DNA of 64,000 bases, from assembly GCA_963798485.1 (NCBI GenBank), contig CAWCTR010000022.1, positions 1 to 64,000 on the forward strand. The letters run 5' to 3'. Positions 8,504 through 24,642 of this stretch are shown in pieces (positions within the stretch are counted from its first letter, which is position 1; every line of letters begins with the position of its first letter). Made by a program: the position numbers and the translations under genes. Origin of the DNA: an uncultured delta proteobacterium. GTDB taxonomy: Bacteria > Desulfobacterota > Desulfomonilia > UBA1062. Under the pieces are notes generated by a model. That model ran no database searches and was not told the DNA's origin. It was given only the letters and a program-made list of their open reading frames with translations.

Positions 8504-9304
8504 TCAAAGGACATACGCCTCGACCTCCAAGCGGACCATTTTGACGTGTATATGGCTGAGGGCATCAATCGGATTTGCCGCCGAATAAGCTTCGATCACT
8601 TCTGCAAGAAAGGCATCTCGCAGTCCGACCGGCAGACGGTCCGTAAAGGGGAACCAAGTTGTCCGCAGCCAGCCCTTAAACCCGTCCGCTCCATGATGCT
8701 GCATATCTTTCGGCATGAGCTCAACACGTACCGGGCGGAATCCGCTTTCCAACAGCCACGCTTCATATTCTTCCGGTCCACAAAAATGGTAGGGCGGAGT
8801 GAAGCCTTCATAGTATTGCCGCCACCGGGGGTGCCGTAAAACCTTTTCAAGGGCTTCGAAAACCTCAGGTGCGTTCCCACGGCCGCCCATCTGAAACAGA
8901 ATCTTGCCGCCTGACTTGAGGCAGGCATGCACGCCTCGAAGAATCGCACTGTGGTCTTTCACCCAATGAAGGGCGGCGTTTGAGAATGCGACATCGAATC
9001 TCCCAGAAAGGCGAATGCTTGTTGCGTCCATATGCAAGAAAGACAGGTTGGGATATTTTGCTGAAGGAAACTGCTCTGAGGCAAGCCGGATCATGTCTTC
9101 AGATAGATCAATGCCCAACACGTTTCCGTTTTTGGCAGCCAGCGCAAGAAGGGCGCTGATCTTCCCATCTCCGCATCCGATATCGAGCACGGATTCACCA
9201 CCCTGCAAGGTGAGTTTTGAAATAAGCTCCTGCGCCCACTGTAGCTGTGCCGAAGAATTTTTTGCGTAATCCACGGCATTCCATTTCTGTTGAACCGGTT
9301 GCAT
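8504..9304 (-). CDS. class I SAM methyltransferase (Tam-like)
   Basis: VLDIGCGDG, FDVAFSNAALHW. Confidence 0.9.
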   Translation of the reverse strand: MQPVQQKWNAVDYAKNSSAQLQWAQELISKLTLQGGESVLDIGCGDGKISALLALAAKNGNVLGIDLSEDMIRLASEQFPSAKYPNLSFLHMDATSIRLSGRFDVAFSNAALHWVKDHSAILRGVHACLKSGGKILFQMGGRGNAPEVFEALEKVLRHPRWRQYYEGFTPPYHFCGPEEYEAWLLESGFRPVRVELMPKDMQHHGADGFKGWLRTTWFPFTDRLPVGLRDAFLAEVIEAYSAANPIDALSHIHVKMVRLEVEAYVL

Positions 9305-9535
9305 AGGGTCCGTTCCCTCTAATGGTTAAAATCACACGAGCCGTCCTCGATGTCGGCTTGATTACTACGTATACTATACGTGTAGCTATTCGATCTGTCA
9401 ATGTGCCCGGCTGGTTATTAGGGTTTGGACAGTAATGTATTTTCTGGGGGCCGACGCCACGCATTAGCGGAGTGCAATTTTTACTGATCATACTGCTTAT
9501 CGCATAAGGCATATGAATGGTGTATACTGGCACAA

Positions 9536-9970
9536 ATGACCAAGCCGGAGCATGCATTAGAATTATTCTCCTCCAAATACTCCTGCGCCCAGGCAGTACT
9601 GATGTCCTTTGCCGGGGATTTCGGCATGGACCGGCTCACGGCATCAAAGGTTGCCTGCGCATTCGGCGGAGGGATCTCTCACCTGGGGCTCACCTGCGGG
9701 GCCGTTTCCGGGGCTCTTATTGCCATCGGGCTTAAACATGGCGGCGGCCCTGAGATGAAGGAAGGGACCTATGAGATCGTCAATGAGTTCGTCGAACGCT
9801 TCACCAGGCTCCACGGCTCCATCAACTGCACCGAGCTCATAGGGTACGACCTGGGCAAGCCTGAGCAACTGGCCGAGGCAAGAGAAAAGGCCATCTTTGC
9901 CGTCCGATGCGTCAAATATGTGGAAGATGCAGTAAAGATACTCGAAGAGATGTTCCGACCCATAGGCTGA
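9536..9970 (+). CDS. C-GCAxxG-C-C family redox protein
   Basis: SCAQAV, FGGG...TCGAVSG, GSINCTEL, terminal C. Confidence 0.85.
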   Translation: MTKPEHALELFSSKYSCAQAVLMSFAGDFGMDRLTASKVACAFGGGISHLGLTCGAVSGALIAIGLKHGGGPEMKEGTYEIVNEFVERFTRLHGSINCTELIGYDLGKPEQLAEAREKAIFAVRCVKYVEDAVKILEEMFRPIG

Positions 9971-10285
9971 AAAGGTACGCCCGATGCCACTGTTTATACA
10001 GTGTTTTTCTTCGCAGCCTCCAGGGTGATGTAGGCAACCTCAGTAAAATAAATTTCTCTTGAAACTTGAAAACCAAAGGTATATGTGGGCGCCAGCTTGA
10101 TACAAGCCCTTACACGAAGGAGAAGTTGATGAGAAAGTTATTTGCATTCGGTATACTGGTATACGCCCTCTTGGTCTTTATCTCATGGACCTAGCCGAAC
10201 AAGTCCTGTCCTATATGACAACCCGCGTATTGCCCATTATCCAAGCCATATGAGTATTCCTTGAATCAAAGGCATGTGCTGAATC

Positions 10286-10924
10286 ATGAAGGATTATGAG
10301 AAGAAGGACTTTGATAAGGAGGCTGCATCCTGGGACCAGGAAGCGGGGCGGATCAAGCTTGCAAACGATGTCGCTGAAGCCATATCTGATGAGATCAGTT
10401 TGACTCCCACAATGGATGTCCTGGACTTCGGCTGTGGCACAGGCCTGCTGACCTTGCAGCTGCAGCCGTACGTCCGATCCATAACAGGCGTTGACAATTC
10501 TCAAGGGATGCTCGACATCCTTTGGGTAAAGATACAGACCCGGAACTTGTCAAAGGTAACAATCCAATACAAAGACCTTGACAAGGGAGATGTACTTGAA
10601 GGCCGGTACCATCTGATCGTCAGCAGCATGACCTTCCATCATATCAGGGAAATCAGCCCTCTCCTCAATCAGTTCTCAAAGGTTTTAGTCCCTCAGGGGT
10701 ATCTCTGCATCGCTGACCTTGACCCTGATGACGGCAGGTTCCACGGCACTAATGAAGGCGTATTTCATTATGGGTTCGACAGGTCGATCCTCAGACATGC
10801 TTTCATTGAAGCCGGATTTGACGACATCAGGGATCGGACGGCGGCATCGGTGGAGAAGCCTGTCTCTGACGGAGGGACGCAACAGTTCACGGTTTTTCTC
10901 ATGACCGGCAGGAAGTCCACCTAA
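10286..10924 (+). CDS. class I SAM methyltransferase
   Basis: FDKEAASWD, VLDFGCGTG, SSMTFHH. Confidence 0.9.
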   Translation: MKDYEKKDFDKEAASWDQEAGRIKLANDVAEAISDEISLTPTMDVLDFGCGTGLLTLQLQPYVRSITGVDNSQGMLDILWVKIQTRNLSKVTIQYKDLDKGDVLEGRYHLIVSSMTFHHIREISPLLNQFSKVLVPQGYLCIADLDPDDGRFHGTNEGVFHYGFDRSILRHAFIEAGFDDIRDRTAASVEKPVSDGGTQQFTVFLMTGRKST

Positions 10925-11043
10925 TGATATTCAGTCTGTAACATTACCGGATCGAGTCCCCATATAAAGAGCAGTCCTTCAGCTGAAGGATGAATTGATA
11001 AAGAACGAAATATCTGCTTCCCTCATATGTTCTGCCTTTTCAC

Positions 11044-11092
11044 TTGACAGGGAAAAGATTATGACTCATTATTGGCATATGCCAATAATGAG
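11044..11092 (+). promoter_or_regulatory. sigma70 promoter overlapped by a 28-bp perfect palindrome (operator)
   Basis: TTGACA 11044-11049, 17-bp spacer, CATTAT; palindrome CTCATTATTGGCAT|ATGCCAATAATGAG 11065-11092. Confidence 0.7.
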
Positions 11093-11102
11093 GATCAGAT
11101 AA

Positions 11103-11570
11103 ATGTCTAGGCCGGTTAAGTGCAGAAGGGTCGGATTCGTACCTGATGTGCTCTATTTCAAACCTGCGGGGATTCCCGTGAGAGACCTGGACGAAGTCGC
11201 ACTCACCATGGATGAGCTCGAATCTATACGTCTGGCTGATCTTGAAGGGTTGTACCAGGAAGATGCTGCAGGACACATGTGCGTTTCAAGACAAACGTTT
11301 GCGAATATACTCGTCTCTGCCCGCAGTAAGATCGCCGAGTGCCTGATACAAGGCAAGGCATTGCGGATAGAGGGGGGGAAGATAGAGGCGCGGGAAAGAG
11401 ACTTCATATGTAAGGATTGTAACTATGCCTGGAGCCTTTCTTTTGGCTCGAAATGCCCGTCTGAATGCCCGCAGTGTCAATGCCCGAACATTAAGAGTTT
11501 GCTTACCGGGCAAGGAATGGCTGCAGGCCCGGGGAAAGACTGTAGAAGAAAAAAACACTGTTGTAAATAA
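11103..11570 (+). CDS. DUF134 family HTH protein with C-terminal zinc ribbon
   Basis: MSRPVKCRRV...FKPAG, DELESIRLADLEGLYQEDAA...VSRQTF, CxxC...CPxC. Confidence 0.9.
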   Translation: MSRPVKCRRVGFVPDVLYFKPAGIPVRDLDEVALTMDELESIRLADLEGLYQEDAAGHMCVSRQTFANILVSARSKIAECLIQGKALRIEGGKIEARERDFICKDCNYAWSLSFGSKCPSECPQCQCPNIKSLLTGQGMAAGPGKDCRRKKHCCK

Positions 11571-11590
11571 AACCCTCAGGAGGAACCAGC

Positions 11591-11959
11591 ATGAATATTT
11601 GTATACCCATAGAAAAAGACGAAGGATTAAACTCGGCCGTGTACGGTCATTTCGGGAGCGCACCGTATTTCGCCATCTATAATACCCAGAGCAAGGAAAT
11701 GGAGATCGTGAACAACGGCAACCTGCATCATGCACATGGGCAATGTAATCCCATTGCCGCATTGTCAGGTAAATCGGTGGATATCCTGGCTACCGGGGGG
11801 ATAGGCGCTGGGGCTATCGAGCGGCTGCGCATGATGGGGGTAAAGGTCTGTCGTGTGGTTTCCGGTAAGACCATACAGGATATCATAAGGAGCCATGAGC
11901 AGGATGGATTGAAAGAAATCGGCGGTGATGATGTTTGCAATCATCACTCCTGTCATTAA
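11591..11959 (+). CDS. NifB/NifX-family (FeMo-cofactor-binding-like) protein
   Basis: HFGSAPYF, GGIGAGA, His/Cys-rich tail. Confidence 0.85.
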   Translation: MNICIPIEKDEGLNSAVYGHFGSAPYFAIYNTQSKEMEIVNNGNLHHAHGQCNPIAALSGKSVDILATGGIGAGAIERLRMMGVKVCRVVSGKTIQDIIRSHEQDGLKEIGGDDVCNHHSCH

Positions 11960-12005
11960 ATATTCCTCAAGGGACATACTCATGAGGCAGGATTACTGCC
12001 CTGTC

Positions 12006-12686
12006 CTATTCCCCTTCAGAGAGTTCCTCAAGGGCCTTGCTGTTCAGGATAGTGATTATCTTCCCTTGAACTTCCAATACGCGATCGTTCTGCATCTTTC
12101 TTAAGGCACGGGAAAGGGCCTCGGGAGTTGATCCGAGTATCTTGGACAGTTCCCGATGGCTGATGGGCAGCTCAATCCTTCCTCCTTTGCCCTTATTTTC
12201 ACGGACCTGGGTGAGGATGAGGAATGAAGCCAGACGCTGGGGGATCTCCTTCAGCGCCAGGGATTCGATGAGTGTCATGGATTCTTTGAGCCTGCGGGAT
12301 AACACCTTCAGGATGTTCAGGAGGAGCGCCGGATCTTTCATGACGATCTCCTCCACGGCTGCACCGGGAATGGTGAGGATGTCCGACTTCTTCAGTGCCT
12401 GGGCTTCAGCGGGAAAGTCATGGGTGGCAAAGGCGGTGCACAGGCCGAAAGGCTCACCTGATCCCAGGAGATACAGAGTCTGCTCCCTGCCTTCCATTGA
12501 GCTTTTGGAGAGTTTCACCTGTCCCGTAATAATTACAAAGAACTGCTTGACCAGGTCCGTCTCGGCAACGATCACTTCCCCCGGCTGGTATGTCCCTATG
12601 AGTACACGCCGGGAAAGGGCCTCCAATACTTCATCGGATAGCCCCTGGAAGAGAGGTATGTCCTGAATCTGTTTCAGCGTGTCCAT
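12006..12686 (-). CDS. Crp/Fnr family transcriptional regulator
   Basis: cNMP-binding-like domain (GEPFG) and HTH ISHRELSKILGSTPEALSRAL with ExxSR. Confidence 0.9.
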   Translation of the reverse strand: MDTLKQIQDIPLFQGLSDEVLEALSRRVLIGTYQPGEVIVAETDLVKQFFVIITGQVKLSKSSMEGREQTLYLLGSGEPFGLCTAFATHDFPAEAQALKKSDILTIPGAAVEEIVMKDPALLLNILKVLSRRLKESMTLIESLALKEIPQRLASFLILTQVRENKGKGGRIELPISHRELSKILGSTPEALSRALRKMQNDRVLEVQGKIITILNSKALEELSEGE

Positions 12687-12700
12687 AAAAACCCATTCCA

Positions 12701-12714
12701 TTGATCTAGATCAA
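12701..12714. promoter_or_regulatory. FNR-type binding box
   Basis: TTGAT-CTAG-ATCAA, a perfect FNR consensus; -10-like TATGTT at 12737-12742 fits class II spacing toward trxA. Confidence 0.8.
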
Positions 12715-12820
12715 TGACCGCACCAACGATCTCGTCTATGTTTAATTTCACGGGATGAAACCTTGTTATCATAAGGAAGAATACCGGGGCAAAAGAAATC
12801 AACGCTTCAAGGAGTGAAAA

Positions 12821-13156
12821 ATGGCGGACAAAGAATACGTAACCCATGCCCATGACAACACGTTCGATACCCTTGTCTTAAAGACAGACAACCCAGCCCT
12901 TGTGGATTTCTGGGCGCCCTGGTGCGGACCCTGCCGGGCTATCGGACCGGTCCTGGAAGAGATAGCAAAAGAATATTCCGGACGGGTGAATGTCGTGAAG
13001 GTAAATGTTGATGAAAGTCCTGAAACATCAAGGAAATACGGGGTCCGGAGCATTCCCACCTTATTGTTCATAAAGGCTGGACAGGTCCGGGAGACGCAGA
13101 TAGGTTCTCTCCCCAAGGCACAACTCACGGCTTTTATAGACAGGAACTTAAAGTAA
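12821..13156 (+). CDS. trxA: thioredoxin
   Basis: VDFWAPWCGPC, YGVRSIPT. Confidence 0.95.
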   Translation: MADKEYVTHAHDNTFDTLVLKTDNPALVDFWAPWCGPCRAIGPVLEEIAKEYSGRVNVVKVNVDESPETSRKYGVRSIPTLLFIKAGQVRETQIGSLPKAQLTAFIDRNLK

Positions 13157-13192
13157 CCCTGTAAACGACAAAGGGAGAAAGGAAAGTAGGTT

Positions 13193-13351
13193 ATGAGCGA
13201 TTTCTGGATATTCATTATTGCACTGGTTCTCTGGTTTTTCTTCCAGACCTGGCTGTTCCCCCGGCTGGGTGTTCCTACCTGAGCATCTGGACCGGCCTGC
13301 CGGGTGGCAGACAAAAAAGACCATAATCTAAAAATATCTTCCAGGAGGTAG
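13193..13351 (+). CDS. candidate small membrane selenoprotein (52 aa if in-frame UGA 13280-13282 is Sec; 29 aa otherwise)
   Basis: MSDFWIFIIALVLWFFFQTWLFPRLGVPT-(UGA)-ASGPACRVADKKDHNLKISSRR-TAG; hairpin CTGCC-GGGT-GGCAG just 3' of the UGA; TAG ends 2 nt before the next ATG. Confidence 0.6.
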
Positions 13352-13353
13352 TC

Positions 13354-14667
13354 ATGAAGAAAAGCAGTATTATCTTAGCAATGGCACTATTAGCCTTTAT
13401 CGTATCGAGTTCAGGTGCCTTAGCAACCAACGGTGATAATATGATCGGTGTGGGCCCCATTGCGAATTCCATGGGCGGTGTGGGCATTGCAGCACCCCAG
13501 GACGCCATCACCTCGGTCTTTGCCAACCCTGCCTCGCTTGGTTTTGTGCCATTTGCCCCGGCCCCATCCTTTGACTTTGCCGGGACGATATTCATGCCCA
13601 AGGTTAGTGCCGAGGTGAGGACAATCAGTGGAACCGCCACCACTTCTGTCAAGGCGGACAGTGCTGATGCCGTATATGCCATCCCCGCCATCGGCCTGAA
13701 TGTCCCTATGGGACCAGACATGCCCAGGTGGAGGTTTGGTTTGGCAGCCTATGGAGTTTCCGGCCTTGGTGTTGATTACCGCGGTACCGCTCTTGATAAT
13801 GCCTCGGGCTATAATTTCGGCGGCGGAAAGGTTGCCCCCCTTATCCAGGGTGAATACACACAGCTCCAGATCATGAAATTTTCACCGGCCATATCCTATA
13901 TGGCCAGTGATACCATAGCGGTGGGTGCTGCGTTGCAGATCGATTATGCAACGTTGGATCTCAGGAGCGGAACATCACCCAATTATGGCGCGGGCCTGAA
14001 CCTAGGGCTTCTCTATACACCCATTGATGTTGTGAGACTGGGCCTGACCTACACCACTGCACAGCCGGTCACCTATAAGCGGATTGAAGACTTTAACCAG
14101 GACGGAACTCCTGACAACCTCAAACTCGAGTCGCCCCAACAAGCAGGTTTTGGTGCGGCCTACACTATCAAAGGTCCGATTAAAACACTCATTGAGGCGG
14201 ATGTGAAATGGATAAATTGGGCTAATGCAGATGGGTACAAGGATTTTGACTGGAACAACCAGTGGGTATATGCCATTGGGGCACAAGTGGAGCCCAAGGA
14301 GAACTTCTTTTTACGATGCGGGTTCAACTACGGCAAGAACCCCGTTGAGACACACAACGGTTTTAATGGAAGTTTCAATCCCTCTACAGGATTGCCGAAC
14401 AGCGCGGTTAATGTCCAGGGCAATTACCTCCCTGCCTATTACTATGAGACCTTCCGGATCATCGGATTCCCGGCCATTGCGGAAAAGCATCTCACCTTGG
14501 GGACCGGATACTGTTTCAGCAAAAACTTCTCCATGAACCTGGGCTACATGCATGCCTTTGAGAAGACTATCTCCGAGACCGGGACCGACTTGTTCGGCAG
14601 GCCTGTAACACTTGAGTCGAAACTCAGCGAGGACAGCATCGATTTCGGGCTTACATGGGTCTTTTAA
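13354..14667 (+). CDS. OmpP1/FadL/TodX family outer-membrane transporter
   Basis: Signal peptide, SMGGVGIA...NPA motif, beta-strand pattern, C-terminal Phe. Confidence 0.88.
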   Translation: MKKSSIILAMALLAFIVSSSGALATNGDNMIGVGPIANSMGGVGIAAPQDAITSVFANPASLGFVPFAPAPSFDFAGTIFMPKVSAEVRTISGTATTSVKADSADAVYAIPAIGLNVPMGPDMPRWRFGLAAYGVSGLGVDYRGTALDNASGYNFGGGKVAPLIQGEYTQLQIMKFSPAISYMASDTIAVGAALQIDYATLDLRSGTSPNYGAGLNLGLLYTPIDVVRLGLTYTTAQPVTYKRIEDFNQDGTPDNLKLESPQQAGFGAAYTIKGPIKTLIEADVKWINWANADGYKDFDWNNQWVYAIGAQVEPKENFFLRCGFNYGKNPVETHNGFNGSFNPSTGLPNSAVNVQGNYLPAYYYETFRIIGFPAIAEKHLTLGTGYCFSKNFSMNLGYMHAFEKTISETGTDLFGRPVTLESKLSEDSIDFGLTWVF

Positions 14668-14718
14668 AAAGTATAAGAGCTGACCTTCGTGTATGCATAG
14701 CCCCCGGGAGGAATAAGG

Positions 14719-17700
14719 ATGTCAAATCTCAGCAGTACTCATAAGGAATATCTCAAGGAAAAATTCAAAGACCGCGTGAACTTCGATGACGTGGAGCGAA
14801 TGCTCTACAGCCACGATATCGCTGCCATGCCGAGTCTTATCAAGCCCTTGATCGGCGATACCACCCCGGATGCCGTAGTACAGCCCCAAAGCGAAGAAGA
14901 GCTGAAAGATCTGGTCGCCTGGGCCGCCAAAAACCACATCCCGCTAACACCAAGGGGGAAGGCATCATCAGGCTATGGGGGGGTCCTGCCTGTGGAGAAC
15001 GGCGTAGTGGTGGATTTTTACCGCATGAAGAAGGTGCTTTCTATCGATAAAGACAAGCTTACAGCCACTGTCCAGCCTGGTATTGTTTGGGAAGGGCTTG
15101 ACCGCGAGCTGAAGAAGAAAGGCCTCACGCTGCTTACCTATCCTTCCAGCTACCCGAGCTCAACAGCAGGAGGATGGCTTGCCCAGGGAGGTGCAGGCTT
15201 CGGGTCGTTTGAGGCCGGCTGGTTCAGGGACATCGTATTGAGCGCCCGGGTCGTGCTTCCCGATGGCACGGTCAGTGTGTTCGAGGGGAAAGATCTCGAT
15301 ATGATCAGTGATGCGGAAGGCATAACAGGCCTCATCAGCGAGATCACCATTAAGGTGCAGGCGGATGATCCCATGGACCTGGTTTCCATCGGCTGTCCGA
15401 ACCCCCATGACCTCCAGAAGCTCATGGAAACAATGATATCTGAAGGCCTGCCCATATGGTCCCTCGTGTTCATCAACCCCAAGATGGCGGAGATGAAGAA
15501 CCAGGCACCCATCATGGAGCACTGGGGACACCCCGCAGAGGAACGGGTTCTCCTGCCTGCATCCTACATCATCACACTCACCTTCCGTAAGAAGGATTCA
15601 GGGCAGGTTATGGGCGGCCTCAGTAAGATCATCAAACTGTGCGAGGCAGAGATCCTGAGCGATAAAATAGCGCACCATGAATGGAAGCACCGGTTCAAGC
15701 TCATGGTAGTGAAACGCTTAGGCCCGAGCCTTGTCCCTGCCGAAGTGGTCATCCCGCTGTCTTCATTCGGCGACTTCATGAAGAAGGTGGAAAGCACCAT
15801 CCAGCAGCCCGTGGTCAAGGAAGGTGTGGTCATCAAGAAATCGGCATCCGGCAAGCCCGAGGTGGTTATCCTCGGATTCATCCCGAGCGATGAGCGGAAG
15901 TTCAGCTATAACTTCGTATTTCCCCTGTCGCTCACGGTCATGAAGATCGCTGAAAAATACGGCGGACGGGCGTATGCCACAGGGCTCTATTTCAAGAGCA
16001 AGGCAAAGGCAGTCCTTGGGAAGGACCGGCTTGCACGGATGAAGGCATTCAAGAAGAAGGTGGACCCCAAGGATATCCTGAACCCCGGCAAGGTGCTTGG
16101 AGGAGGTCTTATCGGGACTGCCGTCAAACTGGGGAGCATATTCGAGCCGTTCATCAGGCCTTTCAGTTATGCCATTATCACGGAAGTGGGGGAGAGGCCT
16201 GAAAAAGACGTTCGGGATATTCCGCCCGATGTGGCCTGGTATGCGTACAGCTGTTCCCAGTGCGGCTACTGTGTGGACGAGTGCGACCAGTTCTATGGCC
16301 GGGGATGGGAGAGCCAGAGCCCAAGGGGCAAGTGGTATTGGCTGCGGGAGTACATGAAGGGCAAGCAGGAGTGGAGTCAAAAGATGGTGGACACCTTCCT
16401 CGTGTGCACTACCTGTGAGCTCTGTAATTTCCGCTGCTCTGCAGCGCTTCCCATAGAACCTTCCTGGATGAAGCTCAGGGGCAAGCTCGTAGATGAGGAA
16501 AAGAAGATGACCTTCCCGCCCTTTGAGATCATGTCCGCAGCGGCCATGAAAGAAGGCAACATCTGGGCCGGCTACCGTAAGGACCGATCGAAATGGTTCC
16601 CTGAAGACCTTAAGGAGAAGCACGGACCCGGCATAACAGCCAAGAACGTCTATTTTGCCGGATGCACGGCCAGCTATGTGGAAGAAGACATCGGCATGGC
16701 GAGCGTGCGGCTGCTGGATAAGGCAGGGGTGGATTTCACCTATGTGGGCAACAAGGAGAACTGCTGCGGCACACCCATGCTGGTTGCAGGCAAGTGGGAT
16801 GTTTTCGAAGCGATCATGAGAAAGAACATCAAGGCCGTCAAAGAAGCCGGCAGTGACACCGTTATCACATCCTGCCCTGCCTGCAATATGATGTGGCGCC
16901 ATGTCTACCCGACATGGGCCAAAAAGCTCGGCATTGATTACGACATAACGGCACGTCACTACAGCGAGATCCTCTCGGAAAAGATAAGATCAGGTGAGTT
17001 TACCTTCCCGGATACCGGGCAGGAAGAGGTTACGGTAACCTGGCATGATTCGTGTCATATCGGCCGCGTGTCAGGCGTCTACGAAGAGCCCCGGGACCTC
17101 ATCAAGGCGATCCCCCATGTAAAATTCGTGGAGATGGATTATCATCATGCCGAGGCGCACTGCTGCGGGAGCGTGCTCAATCTCATCAAAGAGCCGTCTG
17201 TGGCTGCCGATATCGGTGAGACGCGCCTGAACGAGGCATTGGATGCCGGAGCCCAGAAGGTCCTGGCCCTGTGCCCATGCTGCGAGTTCCAGCTCAGGGT
17301 AAGCGCAGAAAAGAAGAAGATGCCCATTGAGGTTGTGGACCTGGCGCGCTTTGCCTCATCCGCCCTGGGGTATGATTTCCCTGATCCCAATCCGGAGGTA
17401 CAAAAGCAGTGGGCCGTGTTCGAGGCCATGATCACACTCATGACCCCCCAGGGGTTCGCCGACCTCATGGGTACCATGTGGCCCGAGCTGATATCGGCCA
17501 TGCCGTTCGGCATGGGGCCCATGATGCGTATTATGGGCAAAATCCCGGGTGCGCTTGACCTCATGAAGCCCATGTTCCCCATACTCTTCCCCAGGCTGCT
17601 GCCCATGATGATGCCCAAGGTCATGCCCACCATGCTCAAGAAAGTCTCCGAGCGCATCCCCATGCCCGACTACATGCGCGAACAGATGCCTGAGCTCATG

Positions 17701-17799
17701 CCCAAGGTCATGGACAACCTCATGCCCCACATGATAGGAGAGGTGGTGCCGCTGGTCACCCGGCCCATGATTAATTATCTGAAGGGGAAGAGCGCTTGA
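14719..17799 (+). CDS. FAD-binding (GlcD-like) + 4Fe-4S + double CCG-domain oxidoreductase with Met/Pro-rich tail
   Basis: PRGKASSGYGG FAD loop, DPKDILNPGK, CSQCGYCVDEC, CTTCELCNFRC, ENCCG, HDSCH, HCCGS. Confidence 0.9.
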   Translation: MSNLSSTHKEYLKEKFKDRVNFDDVERMLYSHDIAAMPSLIKPLIGDTTPDAVVQPQSEEELKDLVAWAAKNHIPLTPRGKASSGYGGVLPVENGVVVDFYRMKKVLSIDKDKLTATVQPGIVWEGLDRELKKKGLTLLTYPSSYPSSTAGGWLAQGGAGFGSFEAGWFRDIVLSARVVLPDGTVSVFEGKDLDMISDAEGITGLISEITIKVQADDPMDLVSIGCPNPHDLQKLMETMISEGLPIWSLVFINPKMAEMKNQAPIMEHWGHPAEERVLLPASYIITLTFRKKDSGQVMGGLSKIIKLCEAEILSDKIAHHEWKHRFKLMVVKRLGPSLVPAEVVIPLSSFGDFMKKVESTIQQPVVKEGVVIKKSASGKPEVVILGFIPSDERKFSYNFVFPLSLTVMKIAEKYGGRAYATGLYFKSKAKAVLGKDRLARMKAFKKKVDPKDILNPGKVLGGGLIGTAVKLGSIFEPFIRPFSYAIITEVGERPEKDVRDIPPDVAWYAYSCSQCGYCVDECDQFYGRGWESQSPRGKWYWLREYMKGKQEWSQKMVDTFLVCTTCELCNFRCSAALPIEPSWMKLRGKLVDEEKKMTFPPFEIMSAAAMKEGNIWAGYRKDRSKWFPEDLKEKHGPGITAKNVYFAGCTASYVEEDIGMASVRLLDKAGVDFTYVGNKENCCGTPMLVAGKWDVFEAIMRKNIKAVKEAGSDTVITSCPACNMMWRHVYPTWAKKLGIDYDITARHYSEILSEKIRSGEFTFPDTGQEEVTVTWHDSCHIGRVSGVYEEPRDLIKAIPHVKFVEMDYHHAEAHCCGSVLNLIKEPSVAADIGETRLNEALDAGAQKVLALCPCCEFQLRVSAEKKKMPIEVVDLARFASSALGYDFPDPNPEVQKQWAVFEAMITLMTPQGFADLMGTMWPELISAMPFGMGPMMRIMGKIPGALDLMKPMFPILFPRLLPMMMPKVMPTMLKKVSERIPMPDYMREQMPELMPKVMDNLMPHMIGEVVPLVTRPMINYLKGKSA

Positions 17800-21152: not shown

Positions 21153-21725
21153 TTATGAACCATGCAGTACAGCCTTCTCCTTGAAGTAATCCGGACAATG
21201 TCCGATACTCACCATGTTCTCCCTGGCACCATCCAGCATCGGGGGTACGTGACCGTGATCCTGCCCATTCCCGAACGCCTCCGCCTCCATCAGAAATTCC
21301 TTTACCTTCTCCTCAAGCTTCATCTGCTTCCTCTTCAGGTCATCAACCGATCCGCTCCACTGCGTGGATGCGTTACCCGGAAGCTTGCACCCATCCAATG
21401 CAAAAAGCGTCCCCCCGAGCAGTTCCATCTCCTCGCAGATCAGCAGCACATCACGGAATAGAGGCAGGATATCCTCCTTCATGGAGACAACGAAGGTTGC
21501 TATCGTGCTACGGTCCGGATACTGGCCGCTGCTCAATGCCATGAACTCCACGTTCTCCCGGCAGGCTTGCTCGATCTTCCTCGATGATATCAGTCCCCGT
21601 GAATACCCCAGCAGCACTACCTTCAGCAGAATCCGGGGATCGTATGCGCGTCTCCCCATATCATCATTCCGGTACTTCCCATCGAACAGGCCCATATCCA
21701 AAAAGACTACTTGTAATGCTAGCAT
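21153..21725 (-). pseudogene. IS1182-like transposase remnant with internal deletion
   Basis: GRRAYDPRILLKVVLLGY...SSRKIE...PDRSTIA...ALDGCKL then jumps to a later DDE-region segment; too short to be intact. Confidence 0.75.
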
Positions 21726-21796: not shown

Positions 21797-22741
21797 ATGA
21801 AAAGCATACTGCTATTTTTTATTATCTTTTTGTTCTCATTCTCCGCCTGGTCAATGACCCCTGTTTCTGATTCCGAGCTTGCAGATGTCACTGGTCAGGC
21901 AGGTGTAAATATCAATCCTGATTTGACCATGAACATAAATATTGGCACCATGGCCTGGGGCGACTCAGATGGTATCTCAACAAGTGCGTACAACCCCTGG
22001 GATCTACCTGCTGGCTCTAGCGGTGGTTATGTGGGTATTAATGATTTCAATATCACCAACCTCACAATACAAGCTCGCATGGAGTCTGGTGACACCTACA
22101 ATGGCTATAACACCATGATGCTGAAGCCGATCACCATCGACGTGGCGACAGTCAATAGCCCGTTCTCAGTAACCACCACTCCTTCTTGGGGTGTGGCCGG
22201 TGTAACAGAGAGTTTGCCCACTGGCACGACGTTTGTCCGTATTGGCCTTGGAGCTCTTGAGATATCAATGGACTCGATGCTATTTAATGTTGATCTGTGG
22301 CAACGCTCGAATGGTTACGCAACGAATGATCTCCTTGCAAATTCTGCCCAGAACCTAGGTGTTGTCACTATGGGTGCAATGTCTATGTACATCAACCCCT
22401 GGAGCTATGTTGACATTTACTCTCCTGCTTCGGCTAAGGCAGGCAACACCTCAGGTGTAGTTTTTGCTGTGAATGTAACTATTGACCAGCTCAACTTTGG
22501 CTATATAGGGTGGGGTGACAAAGATGGTATAACTTCATCAGTAGGATCAACATCAGGAGCAGGTATTACTCAGGTCACTGGCACTGACTTGATGCATGAT
22601 AAAGCTGCCGGTTATATTGGTCTCACCTCACTTTCCTCTGGGCCAATAGCCGTCAATGGGACAGTGGGCGTTGATATTAACACCACCAAATCGGGTATCT
22701 ATGCCCAACTCCCGGCCACCATAAAAATGGTGAATCGGTAG
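21797..22741 (+). pseudogene. DUF6160-like secreted protein, copy 1 (C-terminally truncated)
   Basis: Signal peptide + MTPVSDSELADVTGQAGV, AWGDSDG, LKPITIDV; homology to copy 2 stops at GIYAQLPA. Confidence 0.7.
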
Positions 22742-22860: not shown

Positions 22861-23328
22861 GATTTTTTATCAAAGAGGAAGCATAGTTTCTGTGGAGACT
22901 ATCGCAAAAATCAAACAAACAATGAAAAGTGCTAAAAAAACGTTCTCATAAAATGACCTACAACGAAAGATTTCTGGCTGAGGCTTATGTTTTATGGTCC
23001 CAGTTTGATGGGTTTTGAGCTTACCGGCAAAAGTTTCGCACATAATGTATAACTCTCAAAATATATATAATATGGAATTAATGTGGATAATAATGGAAAA
23101 CAATTATCCATATAATGCAATAAAGATCAGTGTATTGGGAGCCAATTGATAACAATATCAAATTAACTTATTGTTATCATATTATGTTTAATTTTAATCT
23201 ATAATTAGCACACTATTTGCATACTATCATATTACCTTTCTTACTGATGCATTGGGCGAATTTCCCGATTTATTAGTGGTTTATATTTACGGAATATAAT
23301 GAAATCCCTAGGCCAAGAGGAGAAAATT

Positions 23329-24642
23329 ATGAAGAGAGTTTATTTGTTGCTGGTTATTTTGTTCTTGCCCCTTTCAGTATGGGCAATGACCCCGGTTACA
23401 GATACGGATCTATCTAATGTAACCGGTCAGGCCGGCGTGAACATCAATGCCAACGTGACAATGGACATCAACATAGGCAACATGTCCTGGGGCGACTCAG
23501 ATGGTATCACAAGTATTTACAACCCCTGGACAGTACCTGCTGGGTCTAGCGGTGGTTATACCGGTGTAGCAAACTTCAATCTCACCAACCTCACAATAGA
23601 AGCTCGCATGGAGTCTAGTGACACCTACAATGGCTATAACACCATGATGCTGAAGCCGATCACCATCGACGTGGCGACCGTCAATAGCCCGTTCTCAGTA
23701 ACCACCACTCCTTCTTGGGGTGTGAGTGGTGTAACAGAGAGTTTGCCCACTGGCACCACGTTTGTCCGTATCGGCCTTGGCGCTCTTGAGATATCAGTGG
23801 GAGAGATGTCATTTGAAGTCGATCGGTGGCAACGCTCGACCGGTGCAGCGACGAATGATATCAATTTAGCGAGTGCCCAGAACATGGGCGTTGTCGTATT
23901 GGGTGATCTTTCTCTGTACATTAACCCCTGGAGCTATGTTGACATTTACTCTCCTGCTTCGGCTGGGGGAGGCAACACCTCAGGCGTACAATTTGCTGTG
24001 AATGTAACCATTGACCAGCTCAAATTGGGTTATGCGGGGTGGGGTGACGAAGATGGTATAACTTCAGGAGTAGGAGGACCATCAGGACAAGGGATTGGTA
24101 AGGTTACTGCCACAGACTGGATGCATGATAATGCAGCTGGATATCAAGGTATCACCGACCTTTCTTCTGGGCCGATCGCCATCAACGGGACAGTGGGCAT
24201 TGATATTAACACCTCCGCAAAGGGTATCTATGCACAGCTCCCGGCGATTATATCCTTCATGGATGGGAATACGATTCTGAGTGTTCCTTCGGGATACTAC
24301 AAGAGTGAGACAACGGTAGAGGCAGTGCTCGCAGGATTAGGGTTTAATCAATACACTGGTTTAACTACTGGAATACCGAATGGCACGAGCCTGGACAACA
24401 TAATGGCTGGTCTCGCTGCAGCCGGTATGCCTTCTACAGTCAATCCTGTCACCGTAGTCCACATCTCATTCCCGACCGAGTTTATGATTGATGTGCAGGG
24501 ACCTCTCACAGCAGCTGTTCAGCTGTCTAATAGTCCTACCTTTGCAGCCGGTCCTGGAACTTCGACCCTGGGCGACATTTATCTCTCACACCTCGGTCTT
24601 GACATCCATGCTGGCAGCTGGGCAGACATCTGGGCCCACTAA
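23329..24642 (+). CDS. DUF6160-like secreted Gly/Thr/Ser-rich protein, copy 2 (full length)
   Basis: GAGGAG RBS, signal peptide, MTPVTDTDLSNVTGQAGV, C-terminal LGDIYL...SWADIWAH. Confidence 0.75.
   Translation: MKRVYLLLVILFLPLSVWAMTPVTDTDLSNVTGQAGVNINANVTMDINIGNMSWGDSDGITSIYNPWTVPAGSSGGYTGVANFNLTNLTIEARMESSDTYNGYNTMMLKPITIDVATVNSPFSVTTTPSWGVSGVTESLPTGTTFVRIGLGALEISVGEMSFEVDRWQRSTGAATNDINLASAQNMGVVVLGDLSLYINPWSYVDIYSPASAGGGNTSGVQFAVNVTIDQLKLGYAGWGDEDGITSGVGGPSGQGIGKVTATDWMHDNAAGYQGITDLSSGPIAINGTVGIDINTSAKGIYAQLPAIISFMDGNTILSVPSGYYKSETTVEAVLAGLGFNQYTGLTTGIPNGTSLDNIMAGLAAAGMPSTVNPVTVVHISFPTEFMIDVQGPLTAAVQLSNSPTFAAGPGTSTLGDIYLSHLGLDIHAGSWADIWAH

Follow-up and report, generated by a model that had tools for sequence, protein, structure and literature searches.

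The DNA analysed here, hereafter the window, is a stretch of 64,000 nucleotides (nt) from contig CAWCTR010000022.1 of an uncultured delta proteobacterium of the phylum Desulfobacterota, and all positions below are numbered within it. Between a thioredoxin gene and a gene encoding a FadL-type outer-membrane channel, positions 13193-13351 very probably represent a real gene in which the UGA at 13280-13282 is decoded as selenocysteine (Sec), its product apparently being a member of an undescribed family of Sec/Cys membrane microproteins. This interpretation, first proposed in an earlier note based on the letters of the window, is strongly supported by the conservation of the TGA in relatives, by homologues carrying Cys at the aligned position, by a hairpin resembling a bacterial Sec insertion sequence (SECIS) and by the Sec machinery encoded in the genome. 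To judge from sequence, the family is large and unnamed, its members being 45-90 residues long, with Sec in the phylum of the window and Cys (T-C-M-S-G-A-C) in Planctomycetota, Myxococcota, Acidobacteriota and other phyla.

The ATG at 13193 opens a 29-codon open reading frame (ORF) with the terminal residues ...FPRLGVPT, followed by the TGA at 13280-13282. Translation with TGA as U gives the read-through product MSDFWIFIIALVLWFFFQTWLFPRLGVPTUASGPACRVADKKDHNLKISSRR, ending at a TAG at 13349-13351, and the segment after the UGA reads U-ASGPA-C-RVADKKDHNLKISSRR. Two bases separate this TAG from the ATG of the channel (porin) gene at 13354. All elements which the earlier note had described are present in the sequence, i.e. 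a putative transmembrane (TM) helix ending in FPRLGVPT, the in-frame UGA, a TAG 2 nt ahead of the porin gene and, at 13297-13310, a hairpin CTGCC-GGGT-GGCAG with its loop 19 nt after the UGA. The features of the locus are:

13193..13351 (+), whole gene, 52 codons (29 + UGA + 22) followed by a TAG stop, translated with TGA as U
13172..13186 (+), putative purine-rich ribosome-binding region (AAGGGAG, AAGGAAAG) before the ATG, from the sequence
13199..13264 (+), predicted transmembrane helix, codons 3-24 (AlphaFold2; invariant W14 and P23; charge bias)
13280..13282 (+), UGA read as Sec, codon 30 (TGA conserved in relatives; Cys at the aligned position in homologues)
13298..13300 (+), partner Cys, codon 36, giving a U-x5-C motif (Cys at +5/+6 in 29 of 30 loci)
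13297..13310 (+), SECIS-like hairpin CUGCC-GGGU-GGCAG within the coding region (loop distance, controls, covariation)
13343..13351 (+), final codons AGG AGG TAG, overlapping the Shine-Dalgarno sequence AGGAGG of the porin gene (from the sequence)
12821..13156 (+), thioredoxin gene (WCGPC; PF00085, E = 9.8e-33), 36 nt upstream, the proposed reductant
13354..14667 (+), FadL/TodX-type outer-membrane channel gene (PF03349, E = 3.3e-14), 2 nt downstream

Conservation of the TGA and of the sequence beyond it

Two samples of relatives were examined. A six-frame search of 61 related genomes, with best rows taken at E <= 0.02, provided a class sample of 30 loci, and a profile of these 30 proteins was run on 301 genomes (200 genera) of the phylum. 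Exactly one in-frame TGA is found in 47 of the 47 best rows from the 61 genomes, with alignments extending beyond the TGA; homologues keeping TGA or Cys at codon 30 had been named as support in the earlier note. The phylum search gave matches in 143 of the 301 genomes and 96 of the 200 genera, and each row listed has one TGA with the exception of three. In one of these (G103:C29) the alignment ends ahead of a TGA that exists, and the other two (G120:C13 and G156:C17) appear to be a divergent paralogue. The latter two genomes also have the normal Sec form, their second small membrane ORF (L133 and L134) being 34 codons long and ending ...S-F-S-C-P-T before a TGA and a short basic tail; if this TGA is not simply a stop, the ORF may represent such a paralogue, with the motif C-x2-U. 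Neither TAA nor TAG occurs at the site among the matches listed in the class and phylum searches, the outcome that the earlier note had named as speaking against selenocysteine. As background, TGA ends 1651 of the 3615 ORFs of at least 200 codons in this genome.

The organization of the gene is shared by all 30 loci of the class sample, in which a start codon lies 28-29 codons upstream of the TGA and 16-44 codons follow it. No variation is seen at M1, W14, P23, G26 and T29 or in the TGA column, and in 26 loci a tetramer resembling a Shine-Dalgarno sequence lies upstream of the start. Beyond the TGA, Ser is found at +2 in 24 loci, encoded 15 times by TCN and nine times by AGY, and the partner Cys, whose conservation the earlier note had also named as support, is present at +5 or +6 in 29 loci (TGC 22 times, TGT seven times). 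The only length difference, U-x5-C as opposed to U-x4-C, is a whole codon, and indels occur in multiples of three. Frame 0 remains open for at least 16 codons in 30/30 loci, with frames +1 and +2 being shorter in 13/30 and 15/30, respectively. This codon-level pattern indicates that the signal downstream of the TGA is a protein-level one, and not one of RNA alone.

Cysteine homologues and database entries

Selenoproteins are usually recognized by Sec and Cys occupying the same column of an alignment that is homologous to either side of it, as described in the Haft preprint and PMC13188914. A profile of the Sec forms, run against 1.84 billion representative proteins, matched 1471 proteins at E <= 1e-3, 60 of them at E <= 1e-10, and the residue at the Sec position was scored in the best 150 of the 1471. 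Cys is found in 109 of these, a count made from the entries and not from their source records, so that some, e.g. P0004, may be records bearing U; all six metagenome relatives of P0004 that were examined have TGA. A second Cys four residues further on (C-x4-C, as in T-C-M-S-G-A-C) is present in 91 of the 109 Cys forms. Among the rest of the best 150, Trp occupies the site in 22, Arg in three, and Gly, Leu and Lys in one each, 11 proteins end exactly at the Sec position, and the motif was not found in two. For the entries with Trp (P0009, P0011, P0012, P0015, P0023, P0025, P0027, P0032 and others) the simplest reading would be a UGA decoded as Trp by the gene caller. The suspicion that standard annotation truncates or misses such genes is thereby borne out, 11 of the 150 best representatives ending at the site and 22 having W there.

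In direct protein searches the read-through sequence returned only the 29-residue stub, the N-terminal part of the fusion protein P0114 returned only the query itself, and the Cys form P0008 returned 11 proteins, all of them unnamed or 'hypothetical' and lacking a Pfam domain. When named genomes were scanned for the pattern of the Cys-form alignment, the scan identified 73 loci with T-C-M-S-G-[ASG]-C, most of them in Planctomycetota (Pirellulales, Planctomycetaceae, Thermoguttaceae and Isosphaeraceae) and the others in Myxococcota or 'Deltaproteobacteria' metagenome-assembled genomes, Acidobacteriota, Omnitrophota, Nitrospirota and Chthonomonas.

The hairpin downstream of the TGA

The hairpin in the window consists of CUGCC (13297-13301), GGGU (13302-13305) and GGCAG (13306-13310), forming five pairs at -6.8 kcal/mol. 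PMC13188914 quotes a rule by which a bacterial SECIS is a hairpin after the UGA whose small apical loop, at a distance of 16-37 nt from that codon, has a G among its first two bases, and the window hairpin agrees with this rule (loop GGGU, 19 nt). It also fits the genome's own SECIS standard, the elements of both fdhA genes having a stem of at least 7 pairs and a loop GGUCU starting 18 nt after the UGA, and that of selD a 7-pair stem and a loop GUU at 20 nt. An Rfam scan of positions 12000-15000 gave four chance-level matches and no SECIS family.

The rule used to screen the relatives called for a stem of 4 or more pairs closing a loop of 3-8 bases, with the loop beginning 14-34 nt downstream of the UGA and having a G in its first two bases, and for a free energy of <= -5 kcal/mol. 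This rule is passed by 29 of the 30 class-sample loci and by 39 of 47 loci from a phylum sample of one genome per family (68 of 77 with both samples pooled), compared with 7.3% of 600 stretches following ordinary TGA stops and 9.2% of 600 stretches inside long ORFs, controls that were drawn from the single genome of the window, the relatives themselves not being independent. The stems vary by lineage (CUGCC/GGCAG, CUGUC/GACAG, CCUGUCC/GGAUGGG, GGAUCGA/UCGAUCC, GUAUUGA/UCAAUAC and UCUCCCGC/GCGGGAGG). Among 17 loci in which the loop starts at +23, 8/8 stem pairs have changed on both sides, the covariation score is reached by 0/500 shuffles, and 91.2% of the cells pair as compared with 26-43% when the partners are slid, although, as these 17 of the 77 loci were picked for having the hairpin in one register, the paired percentage is inflated and the variety of pair types is not. 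A further alignment (A3) was left out of the pair counts, since loop lengths and registers of the hairpins differ between lineages. A hairpin with G in its loop and a suitable spacing from the UGA, whose conservation the earlier note had listed as support, is present in 68 of 77 loci, and it covaries.

Selenocysteine machinery

As the earlier note had suggested checking, the genome was examined for the Sec machinery. The assembly contains selA (519.5 bits), two almost identical copies of selB (323.9 bits) and a tRNA-Sec whose score of 75.9 bits exceeds the gathering score of 47, as well as selD (383.3 bits), which has one in-frame TGA of its own. Two FdhA-like (formate-dehydrogenase-like) genes likewise have one in-frame TGA each. 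As selA is found in 279 of the 301 phylum-sample genomes, its co-occurrence with the small gene is uninformative. Carriers lacking the Sec machinery would sink the Sec interpretation. Eight carriers have no selA match; in each of the five that are 93-100% complete, tRNA-Sec exceeds its gathering score and selB its cut-off, and the remaining three (G068, G145 and G178) are 61-79% complete.

Predicted structure and novelty of the family

AlphaFold2, run with the 30-row alignment, predicts a single helix at residues 3-24 (block pLDDT 88 and 85) and the rest of the protein as a disordered tail, the helix alone being confident. The Sec forms have on average 0 K/R and 0.93 D/E in the N-terminal flank, and 3.83 K/R and 1.8 D/E in the 22 residues from the conserved Pro, with the Cys forms biased in the same direction. 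Under the established positive-inside rule, such a charge bias would place the N-terminus outside, and the Sec/Cys motif and tail in the cytoplasm. Helix and charge bias together suggest a single-pass membrane anchor. A reading as a signal peptide or as a precursor of a ribosomally synthesized and post-translationally modified peptide was considered and set aside for lack of a basic N-region and of modification enzymes nearby, a cleaved signal peptide being unlikely because there is no basic N-region.

Pfam and NCBIfam matched no family to the window protein, and gave only chance-level membrane matches (E <= 1 or E <= 0.1) to 30 Sec and 25 Cys forms; a thioredoxin-clan Pfam match to the small protein was not found. 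The best hit in a PDB sequence search had E = 0.15, all hits being chance membrane-helix matches, and the ESM Atlas gave only one unnamed Planctomycetota cluster (0.88). A full-text literature search returned no description of such a small Sec/Cys family, and none is contained in the accessible parts of the Haft preprint, PMC13188914, PMC1976440 and PMC12013277. Table 1 of the 2026 review PMC13188914, as far as it is accessible, covers 119 prokaryotic selenoprotein families and includes no protein of ~50 residues with a single helix and this motif. The Sec form is found in about half of the sampled phylum genomes (143/301), and Cys cousins exist in at least five other phyla, yet the family is missing from Pfam, NCBIfam and the accessible part of the 119-family inventory. 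Catalogues need ORFs long enough to be called and compared, and a 29-codon stub is below this limit, which would explain the absence. What is new is the family and its size class; the decoding mechanism is the standard bacterial one.

Genomic neighbourhoods and proposed function

Neighbouring genes were compared in the 30 close relatives, in a family sample of 47 loci with one genome per phylum family (49 fetched, L176 and L198 dropped) and in the 73 Cys-form loci, using for the latter the nearest ORF on each side. Of the 30 loci in close relatives, 11 have a thioredoxin gene immediately upstream in the same orientation, and a further four have a gene of the AhpC/TSA fold in that place; DUF364/DUF4213 with NikR was seen in three, and a hybrid-cluster protein and hemerythrin as single cases. 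A FadL-type gene lies downstream in only 6/30 related loci, that of the window included. The porin gene is probably co-transcribed with the small gene. No terminator-like site was found between the thioredoxin gene and the small gene.

Among the Cys forms, a rhodanese gene lies upstream in 11/73 loci, in nine of the 11 fused to a metallo-beta-lactamase fold and in eight of the 11 accompanied by TauE downstream. A YgaP-like TM protein is adjacent in 12/73, a CoA-disulfide-reductase-like protein with rhodanese in 5/73, an anti-sigma gene of the zf-HC2 type directly upstream in 13/73, thioredoxin adjacent in 4/73, a DsbD-thioredoxin fusion in 5/73, Usp in 5/73 and DUF302 in 4/73. Three natural fusions (P0111, P0114 and L095) join the small domain to a C-terminal thioredoxin. 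In the family sample, the other neighbours include MerR-type regulators (three), ArsR, ECF sigma and Zn-ribbon proteins (two each), and a YgaP-like TM protein, DUF302 and DsrE (one each). Taken together, the neighbourhoods suggest a role in thiol and reactive-sulfur chemistry, thioredoxin serving as the reductant. The genome has several thioredoxins, the one in the window among them, so the latter may be a dedicated one.

A Crp/Fnr-type regulator is encoded divergently upstream of the thioredoxin gene (12006-12701, minus strand), an arrangement likewise found in L019, L021, L022, L025 and L026, and may control the operon of thioredoxin and the small gene.

These observations can be combined into a proposed mechanism. 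The UGA would be decoded via SelB, tRNA-Sec and the hairpin at 13297-13310, yielding a 52-residue product with its short acidic N-terminus facing outward, one TM helix (3-24), a cytoplasm-facing P-R-L-G-V-P-T-U-A-S-G-P-A-C and a disordered basic tail. At the inner membrane face the Sec/Cys pair may cycle between the selenol/thiol form and an intramolecular selenenylsulfide or, alternatively, may bear an adduct of the persulfide type; its reaction partners would be oxidised thiols or reactive sulfur species at the membrane, and the thioredoxin encoded 36 nt upstream would return it to the reduced state. This coupling of a selenol/thiol pair at the inner membrane face to thioredoxin, suggested by the gene neighbours and the three fusions, is put forward tentatively, its chance being slightly below even. 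For the explanation as a whole, i.e. a Sec gene whose product is a redox pair recycled by thioredoxin, the chances appear evenly balanced. A bolder version, in which the family founds a bacterial class of membrane-anchored micro-selenoproteins acting at the inner membrane face as a thioredoxin-recycled relay that accepts sulfur from persulfides or polysulfides, or selenium itself, and hands it on, is unlikely. If true, the relay would work beside rhodanese, persulfide-dioxygenase, TauE and YgaP-type proteins, and the handling of reactive sulfur and selenium would include a component not seen before.

Weighing of the interpretations

Several observations weigh against the interpretation outlined above. 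The hairpin of the window has a stem of just five pairs, and folding of the 91-nt stretch is indistinguishable from that of shuffled sequences (z = -0.02), 92 of 200 of which fold equally well. Taken alone the hairpin is not beyond chance and is weak evidence from a single sequence; it rises above chance because relatives conserve the TGA, the downstream peptide and a hairpin at that position. The selection of the 17 covariation loci described above is a further point, as is the peptide I-E-D-R-S found at codons +6 to +11 in L032, L036, L043, L044, L156, L180 and others, which is encoded by the hairpin arms and loop (GAUCGA-GGA-UCGAUC), so that conservation there may be imposed by the RNA and not by protein function. 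The partner Cys is missing from one locus (L045), a few database homologues have R, G or L at the site, and a search of sequencing runs listed no RNA run containing the stretch. With regard to function, thioredoxin adjacency drops to 2/47 in the family sample, where the neighbours are mostly unrelated housekeeping genes, and metal-related and regulatory neighbours (ArsR, MerR, NikR with DUF364, efflux parts and zf-HC2 anti-sigma factors) are about as frequent as thioredoxin.

One alternative is that the UGA is an ordinary stop, leaving a 29-residue membrane peptide, and that the downstream conservation reflects an RNA element or a spacer before the next gene. The 29-residue part is indeed the best conserved, the tail is of low complexity and predicted to be disordered, and in the window its final codons coincide with the Shine-Dalgarno sequence of the porin gene. 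Sec insertion is usually inefficient, and a truncated peptide is therefore probably made as well. However, no homologue listed has TAA or TAG at the site, the Ser at +2 switches between TCN and AGY, indels come in threes, the frame is open in 30/30 loci, and full-length homologues with Cys at the exact position continue with x-S-x-x-C, so an ordinary stop appears very improbable. Three other explanations accept the same selenoprotein and differ in its role. One of them, that the Sec/Cys pair acts at the membrane by binding or passing on soft metals or metalloids (Hg, As, Cu, Ni or organometals) and undergoes no redox cycling, is the most plausible of these and still fairly unlikely. ArsR adjoins the gene in four loci (L029, L046, L160 and L170), the first of which also has an ArsP-type permease, DUF364/DUF4213 ('heavy-metal chelation') and NikR occur in L034, L040 and L042, MerR-type regulators in L163, L178, L181 and L119, and efflux parts of the HlyD/CusB, OEP and AcrB types beside Cys forms; in addition, the accessible parts of the Haft preprint and of the PMC13188914 table place several Sec proteins in metal or organometal traffic. 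Each such context covers few loci, however, redox and thiol stress are likewise sensed by members of the MerR and ArsR families, and the commonest contexts of the Cys forms are sulfur enzymes and thioredoxin-type proteins.

MerR-type genes, which in L163, L178 and L181 sit immediately upstream in the same orientation, are also consistent with a role in redox sensing at the membrane or in modulating a regulator (an anti-sigma factor or MerR-type protein, for instance), as are the zf-HC2 anti-sigma gene directly upstream in 13/73 Cys-form loci, the ECF sigma gene downstream in L162 and L187, and the Crp/Fnr-type regulator that, in the window and its close relatives, is encoded upstream of the thioredoxin gene and divergently from it. 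No regulator is constant across the family, though, and membership of a stress regulon would give the same neighbourhoods, which makes a sensor role improbable, more so than one in metal binding. Marginally less probable again is that the protein is an accessory subunit of a transporter of sulfur anions or other solutes (TauE/SafE, YgaP-like TM) and not a free-standing thioredoxin substrate. This would be in line with TauE directly downstream in eight Cys-form loci, with the YgaP-like TM protein adjacent in 12/73 Cys-form loci and in L174, and with a weak alignment of the motif to the C-terminal helix and Cys of neighbouring YgaP-like proteins (hhalign 41.6%, 15 columns). The profile similarity is short and weak, though, most Sec-form loci have no neighbouring transporter, and the downstream channel in the window is of the outer-membrane FadL type, seen downstream in only 6/30 relatives.

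Relation to known selenoproteins

SELENOK and SELENOS are eukaryotic proteins with an N-terminal single TM helix and a disordered cytosolic tail carrying Sec near the C-terminus, their SECIS being located in the 3' untranslated region. They are the nearest architectural analogues of the small protein, having in common with it one TM helix near the N-terminus and a disordered tail with Sec. There is no sequence relation, no Pfam family having matched 30 members at E <= 1 beyond chance membrane matches, and the small protein differs in that its Sec lies 6 residues after the helix and its SECIS within the reading frame. The nearest sequence lead, a weak one, appears to be the C-terminal helix of YgaP-like TM proteins (PF11127, DUF2892), with which the family shares a helix ending hydrophobic-G-[LIV]-x-x-C at the membrane face as well as rhodanese and thioredoxin neighbourhoods, and which adjoin both Cys forms (12/73) and the Sec form L174. 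PF11127 differs in having two helices and a W-C-P motif, and gave no hmmscan match in the small protein, the hhalign probability of 41.6% extending over 15 columns only.

The bacterial U-x-x-C/C-x-x-U selenoproteins (thioredoxin-, glutaredoxin- and peroxiredoxin-like), as given in the accessible part of Table 1 of PMC13188914, are alike in having an in-frame UGA with Cys homologues, a nearby partner Cys, an in-frame SECIS just after the UGA and selenoprotein-rich anaerobes as hosts. Compared with these, the small protein is predicted to lack the thioredoxin fold, consisting of one helix and a disordered tail, has a spacing of x4-x5 and not x2, is only about 45-60 residues long and is predicted to be membrane-anchored. 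Neither the predicted structure nor the Pfam search places it among the thioredoxin-fold oxidoreductases, which are defined by that fold and a CxxC-type active site. Among the small selenoproteins named by NCBI, the accessible text of PMC13188914 lists the LULAXC-motif protein TsoA, TsoY, SaoC, KCU-star/DUF466 and a dual-CXXC small protein, which are likewise small Sec/Cys proteins, found since database entries end at the UGA; their NCBIfam models match none of the 30 Sec and 25 Cys forms (E <= 1 or E <= 0.1).

If confirmed, the family would be a widespread new one in bacterial selenoproteomes, a bacterial architectural counterpart to the eukaryotic single-pass membrane selenoproteins, and a very small and tractable model of a Sec/Cys pair at a membrane surface. 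It would also give a name to more than 1000 'hypothetical' small Cys proteins in thioredoxin, rhodanese and persulfide-dioxygenase neighbourhoods, and serve as a warning that entries with Trp at the site (22 of the best 150) are probably mis-decoded UGA.

Other features of the window

A second contig of the same assembly (G000:C29, 21,086 bases) is 99.5% identical to 5.8 kb of the window (9001-14832) and carries an identical copy of the small gene; the reported contamination of the assembly is 6.96%. Since selB is also present twice, this copy looks like strain-level assembly redundancy and not a paralogue.

Upstream of the thioredoxin gene, positions 9536-9970 (+) encode a C_GCAxxG_C_C 'putative redox-active protein' (PF09719, E = 9.1e-32) with an open frame and no TGA, a family which is among those with Sec members in the accessible part of PMC13188914. 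Directly after the porin gene, positions 14719-17799 (+) encode a 1026-residue fusion of an FAD-linked oxidase (PF01565 and PF02913), which also holds a 4Fe-4S dicluster domain and two CCG cysteine-rich domains. Further downstream, an ORF with a DUF772 transposase domain (21153-21725, minus strand) is followed by two DUF6160 proteins at 21797-22741 (+) and 23299-24642 (+).

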